DNA of 64,000 nt from an uncultured Albidiferax sp. (GTDB lineage Bacteria; Pseudomonadota; Gammaproteobacteria; Burkholderiales; Burkholderiaceae_C), in the NCBI GenBank assembly GCA_963512645.1, contig CAUPNM010000021.1, positions 12,123-76,122 on the forward strand, read 5' to 3'. The notes under the pieces are model-generated. The model ran no database searches and was not told where the DNA came from. It was given only the letters and a program-made list of their open reading frames with translations. Position numbers and translations under genes: made by a program. Position 1 is the first letter of the stretch. Every line of letters begins with the position of its first letter. Shown one piece after another: positions 41,168 to 41,295 of this stretch.

Positions 41168-41205
41168 AAAAAAAACCGCCTGAGAGCTGGGGCTCCGGCG
41201 GTTTT
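41168..41205 (-). terminator. Attenuator terminator upstream of aroG
   Basis: Minus strand AAAACCGCC-G-GAGC-CCCA-GCTC-TCA-GGCGG followed by eight U, ending about 50 nt before the aroG ATG. Confidence 0.85.
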
Positions 41206-41238
41206 CATGAAGGGCTTGCTTGTCTACAACTTAGCCTC

Positions 41239-41295
41239 TCATCCGCCGGGGACCGAGAACCAAAAGTAAAAGTAGGCAAACACGCTTTGATGCAT
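41239..41295 (-). CDS. Aromatic-amino-acid leader peptide (18 aa, MHQSVFAYFYFWFSVPGG)
   Basis: Manual translation: ATG CAT CAA AGC GTG TTT GCC TAC TTT TAC TTT TGG TTC TCG GTC CCC GGC GGA TGA; 7 of 8 consecutive codons are Phe/Tyr/Trp. Confidence 0.85.
   Translation of the reverse strand: MHQSVFAYFYFWFSVPGG

Follow-up and report, generated by a model that had tools for sequence, protein, structure and literature searches.

Introduction

The question raised by this locus is what controls its gene for the first step in making aromatic amino acids. In Escherichia coli, control of this step involves three isozymes and the repressors TyrR and TrpR. The stretch of DNA analysed here (the window: 64,000 nucleotides (nt) of contig CAUPNM010000021.1, from an uncultured Albidiferax sp.) carries on its minus strand aroG, which encodes a class I-alpha 3-deoxy-7-phosphoheptulonate (DAHP) synthase. 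Just upstream of aroG, a first-pass annotation made from the letters alone proposed a short, uncalled open reading frame (ORF) rich in codons for phenylalanine (Phe), tyrosine (Tyr) and tryptophan (Trp), followed by a transcription terminator and an alternative, antiterminating structure. Here, we examine this element in the window, in related genomes and in metagenomes. We find that it is highly likely to be a ribosome-mediated (leader-peptide) transcription attenuator of aroG, and that the mechanism first proposed for it is the best explanation of what we see.

Results

An aromatic leader ORF and an intrinsic terminator precede aroG

The first-pass annotation had placed a leader ORF, its aromatic run and a terminator about 50 nt before the aroG start, and our direct reading of the minus strand agrees with it at every coordinate. 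The parts of the element and its regulated gene, all on the minus strand, are as follows.

41239-41295, minus strand: leader ORF MHQSVFAYFYFWFSVPGG*, read directly; intact with the same aromatic core in 78/78 sequences and in metagenome copies
41257-41280, minus strand: regulatory codon run F6-A-Y-F-Y-F-W-F13, UUU GCC UAC UUU UAC UUU UGG UUC, with conservation anchored on the Trp codon
41255-41259, minus strand: region 1 core, UUCUC (codons F13-S14), which pairs with the GAGAG of region 2 when no ribosome is present (full-transcript folds, window and relatives)
41233-41249, minus strand: region 2, the 5' strand of the antiterminator, made up of CCGGCGG (41249-41243), AU and GAGAGGCU (41240-41233); CCGGCGG-nn-GAGAG is nearly invariant
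41217-41232, minus strand: apical hairpin of the antiterminator, small and variable, separating region 2 from region 3 (GCGUA...UACGC or ACGU...ACGU in relatives)
41195-41216, minus strand: region 3, the 3' strand of the antiterminator, made up of AGCCCUUC (41216-41209), AUGAAAA and CCGCCGG (41201-41195), the last of which doubles as the terminator 5' arm
41168-41205, minus strand: intrinsic terminator, AAAACCGCCGGAGC CCCA GCUCU CA GGCGG UUUUUUUU; hairpin of -19.0 kcal/mol plus U8, stem core invariant (n=78)
39994-41115, minus strand: aroG, class I-alpha DAHP synthase, 373 amino acids, the regulated gene (NCBIfam and PDB matches)

The ORF opens with an ATG at 41295 and runs for 18 codons to a TGA stop at 41241-41239. 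Codons 6 to 13 specify four Phe, two Tyr and one Trp, and no other stretch of eight codons in the six frames of the 64 kb is aromatic at seven positions. This run exceeds chance: 100 Markov-1 simulations of the window produced on average 0.04 stretches with at least six aromatic codons in eight, and none with at least seven. We set aside two other aromatic stretches in the window. AWRWWWFY (21646-21669, plus strand), which resembles a trp leader, is an artefact, an antisense and out-of-frame reading of the GKTTT P-loop of ffh (20630-22003, minus strand), and FFVIYFFY (61192-61215, minus strand), aromatic at six of eight positions, lies inside a 64-codon, GTG-started ORF that overlaps a 195-codon ORF on the opposite strand and is probably a chance frame.

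Downstream of the leader, the RNA AAAACCGCCGGAGC-CCCA-GCUCU-CA-GGCGG-U8 folds as a single hairpin of about -19 kcal/mol with a tail of eight uridines, and the aroG ATG at 41115 lies 52 nt past this U-run. The aroG product passes the NCBIfam model TIGR00034 (aroFGH) at 528 bits, and reaches 541 bits against the AroG equivalog model, whose cut-off is 568. Its best PDB match is the Phe-sensitive AroG of E. coli (E 7e-137), and it is 61% identical to E. coli AroG, 95% identical to its counterpart in R. ferrireducens and 99% identical to a protein from an Albidiferax metagenome-assembled genome.

The element is conserved across Comamonadaceae and belongs to aroG

A scan for AroG with one genome per species yielded 80 loci, all in Comamonadaceae, whose proteins are 81-99% identical to that of the window and whose genera include Rhodoferax, Polaromonas, Acidovorax, Variovorax, Curvibacter, Hydrogenophaga, Ramlibacter and Xenophilus. 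The 77 usable upstream regions among these, together with the window, gave a conservation set of 78 distinct sequences. The first-pass annotation had suggested an alignment of just this kind as a check, and it bears the idea out, with the aromatic codons and the terminator in all 78 sequences and compensatory changes in the antiterminator. Every sequence has a leader ORF of 18-29 codons that starts with ATG (GTG in one) and ends near the same RNA block, with the core consensus F/Y-Y/F-F-(x)-Y-F-W-F. A Trp codon is present in 76/78 leaders, and relative to it Phe is found at position -1 in 76/76, Tyr at -2 in 71/76 and Phe at +1 in 72/76. Positions -6 to -4 are mostly Phe or Tyr, which swap with each other, while the interrupting codon at -3 encodes Ala, Gly, Ser or Phe through many different codons. 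Interchange of Phe and Tyr around a free interrupting codon is the pattern predicted by selection on codon identity. Phe is written UUU 223 times and UUC 117 times in the 78 leader ORFs, from genomes of about 63% G+C; RNA structure, in the form of pairing between the U-rich codons and downstream sequence, may drive this excess of UUU.

Beyond the aromatic run, conservation tracks RNA pairing (xCC-GGC-GG) and not amino acids. Leaders in most relatives have 22-25 codons and end in ...GGREILA*, with the stop about 9 nt past GAGAG. Those of Rhodoferax (the lineage of the window) and Acidovorax have 18, because the spacer between GGCGG and GAGAG is AU instead of AC or UA, which turns a CGA codon into an in-frame UGA. 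As these shorter leaders keep the element, their missing C-terminal residues must be dispensable as protein.

The upstream gene is tldD in 42/72 related loci, and the element is still present in the other 30, which have a different upstream gene; the element therefore belongs to aroG. The interval between terminator and aroG ranges from 50 to 140 nt and is unconserved apart from a Shine-Dalgarno sequence, and a promoter scan of the window found no promoter-like site within it. Metagenomes give the same association from the opposite direction. A motif-first scan of metagenome contigs with TTTTGGTTY-N9-15-GGCGG-N2-3-GAGAG returned 120 matches, 93 of them real; by strict patterns, 83 have the promoter box described below with an ATG and 84 have the terminator, and most real copies that fail these patterns lie near contig ends or are slight variants. 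Wherever a real copy was followed by enough downstream DNA (82/82), it preceded a DAHP synthase gene, and the full-length synthases among these are 75-88% identical to AroG of the window. We discarded the remaining 27 matches, which lack aroG and have neither promoter nor terminator, as chance matches. Within the 64-kb window, a covariance model of the element finds a single match, at 41195-41250.

We also looked beyond the family, in a small sample of five betaproteobacteria whose AroG homologues came from mislabelled chromids and chromosomes within a plasmid collection. No aromatic leader lies upstream of aroG in Cupriavidus sp. EM10 (75% identical AroG), Burkholderia multivorans, Burkholderia sp. 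YI23, Caballeronia insecticola or Neisseria gonorrhoeae (57-59% identical). A Phe-rich, TTG-started ORF upstream of N. gonorrhoeae aroG was rejected as a chance ORF in AT-rich DNA without the conserved features. This distribution suggests that the leader may be an innovation at the level of the family Comamonadaceae.

The terminator is predicted to compete with a large antiterminator

The terminator core (AACCGCCG...CGGCGG-U) is invariant in the 78 sequences, and the terminator appears in the full-length minimum free energy (MFE) structure of 76 of them. The competing structure rests on two heptamers that the first-pass annotation had singled out as exactly complementary, and they are: CCGGCGG at 41249-41243, within the Pro-Gly-Gly codons of the leader, and CCGCCGG at 41201-41195, in the terminator 5' arm. 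The predicted antiterminator is much larger than the 7 base pairs (bp) of that account. It has three parts, namely an outer stem formed by the two heptamers, an inner stem in which GAGAG(n) pairs with a pyrimidine stretch just 5' of the terminator (GAGAGGCU with AGCCCUUC in the window), and a small apical hairpin.

When the window transcript is truncated before the 3' arm of the terminator, it folds as the antiterminator (-23.8 kcal/mol), and the antiterminator is likewise the MFE structure of such truncated transcripts in 16/16 representative sequences folded. Mean free energies over the 78 sequences are -21.5 kcal/mol for the antiterminator and -18.6 kcal/mol for the terminator. In untranslated, full-length folds a third pairing is seen, a putative 1:2 'protector' in which UUCUC of codons F13-S14 pairs with GAGAG. 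On average 9.9 of 14 bases of region 2 are paired with upstream leader sequence in these folds, and the U-rich aromatic codons pair with A-rich sequence downstream.

We tested the antiterminator pairing on two alignments, one made with MAFFT (A3) and one of the metagenome set, an independent sample aligned with a model built from the first (A4). In A3, 82.6% of alignment cells are paired, and 32-55% when the partners are slid; the corresponding values in A4 are 79.8% and 32-52%. Cells with changes on both sides number 28 in A3 against 15.6 +/- 5 in shuffles (reached by 0/500), and 41 in A4 against 19 +/- 4 (0/500). Covariation scores are 0.127 against 0.114 in A3 (3/500) and 0.146 against 0.120 in A4 (0/500). 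The proposal that the terminator 5' arm is captured by an antiterminator is thus upheld both by the truncated folds and by both-side changes beyond those of 500 shuffles in each alignment.

Individual cases are instructive. The clearest is one relative (L038) in which both partners have changed, the leader to CCGACGG and the terminator 5' arm to CCGUCGG, while the 3' arm is still CCGGCGG, so that the antiterminator stays perfect and the terminator acquires a G.U wobble. Between clades, the position that follows GAGAG and its partner change together (G with CCUCC, AU with AUCUC, UU with AAUUC), and complementarity in the inner stem is higher between cognate than between non-cognate strands (permutation, 0/2000). 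At the closing pair of the apical hairpin, G:C is replaced by A:U in compensated form (11 AU and 29 GC in A3; 14 AU and 30 GC in A4). The five central base pairs of the antiterminator are invariant, and the covariation stems from the periphery and the apical hairpin. RNAalifold, run on MAFFT alignments, recovered either the terminator only or the 5-bp outer antiterminator stem only.

The leader would place a ribosome so as to decide between the two structures

In 70/78 leaders, CCGGCGG follows the start of the last aromatic codon by 13 nt (39 sequences) or 10 nt (31 sequences), an offset that matches the reach of a stalled ribosome from its A site to its front edge. We modelled the footprint by masking the RNA as far as 13 nt beyond the start of the A-site codon and folding the transcript as it stands before synthesis of the 3' arm. 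For the window, the outer stem of the antiterminator is full with the A site anywhere up to W12, reduced at F13 and lost from S14, and the other representatives shown behave in the same way. With the stop codon in the A site, the antiterminator forms in 0/78 sequences. Equilibrium folding of the full transcript with a masked ribosome was abandoned as a model of the decision, as it always returns the terminator; truncated transcripts were used instead.

An extended -10-like box abuts the leader start

Just upstream of the leader ATG, cTGTGcTAcAtT is found in each of the 78 sequences, and its bases T-G-n-T-A-n-A-n-T are invariant. In the window this is the following feature.

41304-41314, minus strand: extended -10-like box TGTG-G-TACATT (TGTG at 41314-41311, hexamer TACATT at 41309-41304); TGnTAnAnT invariant (n=78), 8 nt 5' of the leader ATG

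The hexamer lies 6, 7 or 8 nt from the ATG in 9, 40 and 29 sequences, respectively, and the bases between vary freely. Neither a conserved -35 box nor a leader Shine-Dalgarno sequence is found in the 78 aligned upstream regions, and there is no room for the latter. A consensus promoter scan reported no promoter at TGTGgTACATT, which it missed because a -35 box is absent. The box suggests that the leader may be transcribed from an extended -10 promoter of its own. On the simplest reading, transcription probably begins no more than 2 nt from the A of the leader AUG, and the leader would then be translated from a leaderless messenger RNA (mRNA). Leaderless leader peptides are documented elsewhere, in Sinorhizobium meliloti trpL (PMC7298713) and in 14 cases from Deinococcus deserti (PMC4007540).

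In a Variovorax transcriptome (L027, 2438-2448), assembled contigs break exactly in the terminator loop, and one has adapter sequence joined there; the break may mark an RNA end, or the hairpin may have disturbed the assembly.

Neighbouring genes

Three further features of the locus lie outside the parts described above.

41122-41126, minus strand: aroG Shine-Dalgarno sequence AGGAG; AGGAG/AGGAA is kept 6-9 nt 5' of the aroG ATG in alignment A1
41332-42906, minus strand: tldD, the upstream neighbour, outside the element (NCBIfam TldD equivalog, 657 bits)
38918-39928, minus strand: ORF of 336 amino acids, beginning 65 nt 3' of aroG; no Pfam match

The tldD stop lies 36 nt from the leader ATG on the same strand. 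As called, the tldD ORF (524 amino acids, TTG start) exceeds the TldD profile by about 43 residues. The match to that profile begins at residue 50, and the true start is probably further downstream. The 336-codon ORF has a homologue at the equivalent place in only 13/80 related loci. Between it and aroG lie a weak hairpin and a stretch of T, making its co-transcription with aroG uncertain.

On the chromid of Variovorax paradoxus VAI-C (L083, 1486-2574), a second DAHP synthase paralogue, 54% identical, adjoins kdsA and has no aromatic leader. Variovorax at least would therefore have a DAHP synthase isozyme outside leader control, and the idea of one leader at the first step may overstate the case.

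Discussion

Leader-peptide attenuation depends on a short translated ORF, a terminator and an alternative pairing that the position of a ribosome can favour or block. The first-pass annotation had invoked the logic of the trp/phe/his attenuators, and its ingredients (ORF, terminator, alternative pairing and ribosome geometry) are all present here and conserved. We consider the anatomy, the conservation, the alternative foldings, the ribosome-footprint geometry and the exclusive association with aroG to be established. From sequence patterns we infer that the leader is translated, where its transcript starts and which amino acids matter.

We propose that RNA polymerase would start from TGTGgTACATT (41314-41304) at about the A of the leader AUG (41295), and that the leaderless 18-codon leader would be translated by a ribosome closely trailing the polymerase. 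When transfer RNA (tRNA) for Phe, and probably also tRNA-Tyr and tRNA-Trp, is charged, this ribosome would reach the UGA at 41241-41239 and cover CCGGCGG-AU-GAGAG of region 2; the terminator at 41205-41168 could then form, and transcription would stop before aroG. When an aromatic tRNA is poorly charged, the ribosome would stall within F6-F13 (41280-41257), covering UUCUC of region 1 and leaving region 2 free. Region 2 would then pair with nascent region 3, AGCCCUUC...CCGCCGG (41216-41195), sequestering the terminator 5' arm and allowing read-through into aroG. On transcripts that are not translated, such as those reading through from tldD, region 1 would pair with region 2 and the terminator would form.

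Several observations weigh against this mechanism or against parts of it. At equilibrium, the full transcript prefers the terminator even with a modelled stalled ribosome; the switch must therefore be kinetic, or co-transcriptional, as in trp. The truncated transcript still folds as the antiterminator in 38/78 sequences when no ribosome is present, so that the 1:2 'protector' is not decisive in thermodynamic terms. The inner antiterminator stem is only 63-67% paired in fixed alignment columns, because the GAGAG/CUCUC repeats permit several registers, and the same register slippage accounts for its weak column-wise statistics. The codons TAC-TTT-TGG-TTC are kept at synonymous sites as well (TAC in 60/71, TTT in 74/76, TTC in 64/72), and an RNA-level constraint could thus account for some of the conservation seen at the Tyr and Trp codons. 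Leaderless translation is uncommon in proteobacteria. Finally, the assembled contigs of metatranscriptomes or mixed samples that cover the window and the Variovorax locus break at strain variants or at the terminator hairpin, and are uninformative on RNA ends.

The alternative that survives best accepts the attenuator and narrows its signal: the leader would sense essentially Phe, and the Tyr and Trp codons, too scarce to serve as signals, would be either tolerated or structural. Phe codons do dominate, at 4-5 per leader against 1-2 for Tyr and one for Trp, the enzyme is closest to the Phe-sensitive AroG of E. coli, and the synonymous-site conservation described above points to RNA-level constraint. 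The same is suggested by a Corynebacterium glutamicum leader, aroR (Phe-Tyr-Phe), which was found upstream of aroF by RNA sequencing (Mentz 2013, PMC4046766): in the summary that PMC11802643 gives of Neshat 2014, Phe limitation raised aroF transcription and Tyr availability had no effect. Against this, the lone UGG is kept at a fixed place in nearly every leader, and a ribosome stalled there exposes the whole antiterminator; the upstream swaps between Phe and Tyr fit either residue as a regulatory codon; and a single hungry codon suffices for stalling under strong starvation. We regard a leader that reads Phe only as possible, and somewhat unlikely. In the attenuator that we propose, Phe is very likely to be a signal, while for Tyr and for Trp as additional signals we see about even odds each.

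A second alternative keeps the attenuator and gives up the leaderless start. Transcription would begin upstream, at a promoter within tldD or by read-through from it, and the TGnTAnAnT box would have some other role. Besides the rarity of leaderless mRNAs in proteobacteria, the missing -35 box and the silence of the consensus scan at this site, one Variovorax transcriptome contig spans the upstream gene, the leader and the sequence up to the terminator loop. This explanation has to contend with the nature of the conserved bases, which are the key positions of a -10 element (T-12, A-11 and T-7) as well as A-9 and the TG that marks an extended -10. It also leaves the fixed distance of the box from the ATG in 78/78 sequences, across freely varying bases, and the lack of both a leader Shine-Dalgarno sequence and space for one. 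Moreover, the upstream gene differs in 30/72 loci, so that a common upstream promoter is unlikely. We judge a start further upstream to be unlikely, and favour initiation at the leader AUG.

A third possibility is that the small ORF or its RNA, about 130 nt long, has an independent function, whether as a hydrophobic micro-peptide or as a trans-acting small RNA like rnTrpL/peTrpL, in place of cis attenuation or in addition to it. Terminated attenuator RNAs and leader peptides of S. meliloti can act in trans (PMC7298713), and the core of the peptide is highly conserved here. Its N- and C-termini, however, vary freely, the CGA-to-UGA change drops six C-terminal residues in the Rhodoferax and Acidovorax lineages while the element is retained, and conservation after the run follows RNA pairing and not amino acids. 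We therefore think such a function improbable. Least credible of all is that there is no attenuator, and that the hairpin is simply the terminator of tldD, with an aroG promoter in the 52 nt after it and a small ORF that arose by chance: the hairpin does follow tldD on the same strand, no second terminator for that gene can be seen and an A/T-rich stretch with TATAAA separates it from aroG, but ORF, box and terminator accompany aroG at the 30 loci with another neighbour and in all 82 informative metagenome copies, the aromatic ORF is far beyond chance, and the stretch between terminator and aroG is unconserved save for its Shine-Dalgarno sequence and free of any promoter-like site in the scan.

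With ribosome-mediated attenuation as the preferred reading, the element is a new case of a textbook class, and leaves the textbook mechanism unchanged. Like E. coli trpL, pheL and hisL (Trp_leader, Phe_leader and His_leader in Rfam), it combines a short ORF holding end-product codons with regions that can pair 2:3 (the antiterminator) and 3:4 (the intrinsic terminator) and may pair 1:2, and the position of the ribosome would decide among them. It differs from these in having no sequence or structure homology to the Rfam models; a cmscan search of 40900-41500 with E up to 10 gave no match to these families, to Leu_leader or Thr_leader, or to any riboswitch or T-box, and just two noise hits, to a small nucleolar RNA (snoRNA) and to Xoo8. 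The gene regulated here is the DAHP synthase of the common pathway, not a terminal-branch operon; the run mixes three amino acids; and the 5' untranslated region and the Shine-Dalgarno sequence are apparently absent. Full-text literature searches returned no description of an aroG leader in beta-proteobacteria, and older comparative-genomics predictions may mention one.

Multivalent attenuators are familiar from thr (Thr and Ile) and ilvGMEDA (Ile, Val and Leu), where, as here, one leader holds codons for several amino acids made through the regulated genes; those leaders integrate amino acids of the aspartate or branched-chain families. No characterised leader with codons for all of Phe, Tyr and Trp is known to us. 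The nearest functional parallel is C. glutamicum aroR-aroF, which likewise sets a leader peptide with aromatic codons before a DAHP synthase gene. It belongs to another phylum, has only three aromatic codons and no Trp codon, and has been tested experimentally; compared by description only, it is presumably an analogue of independent origin. The leaderless leaders of S. meliloti trpL, D. deserti and actinobacterial attenuators share with our proposal a transcript 5' end at the AUG and a -10 box directly upstream; their starts were mapped, while the start proposed here is deduced from the TGnTAnAnT box 6-8 nt before the ATG.

A more far-reaching version of this model can be imagined, which we offer tentatively and think rather less likely than its opposite. 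A single leaderless leader of 18-24 codons would act as a three-input sensor of charged tRNA-Phe, tRNA-Tyr and tRNA-Trp, and throughout Comamonadaceae it would be the chief means of controlling, by transcription, how carbon enters the shikimate pathway. The Phe codons would provide graded sensitivity and the single, exactly placed Trp codon an emergency trigger, and the abundant terminated RNA of about 130 nt or its peptide might also act in trans, like rnTrpL and peTrpL in Sinorhizobium.

If true, our reading would add a new and well-conserved attenuator family that Rfam could take up, and would explain how aroG is regulated in Comamonadaceae. It would also give two natural examples, one of multivalent attenuation over Phe, Tyr and Trp and one of a leaderless leader peptide among beta-proteobacteria. 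The element could then serve as a compact building block, either in biosensors or to free shikimate flux from regulation in bacteria of environmental and industrial use. Set beside the three isozymes and two repressors of E. coli, Comamonadaceae as a family appear to control the first aromatic step through a single small RNA switch, which would read directly how far the aromatic tRNAs are charged.

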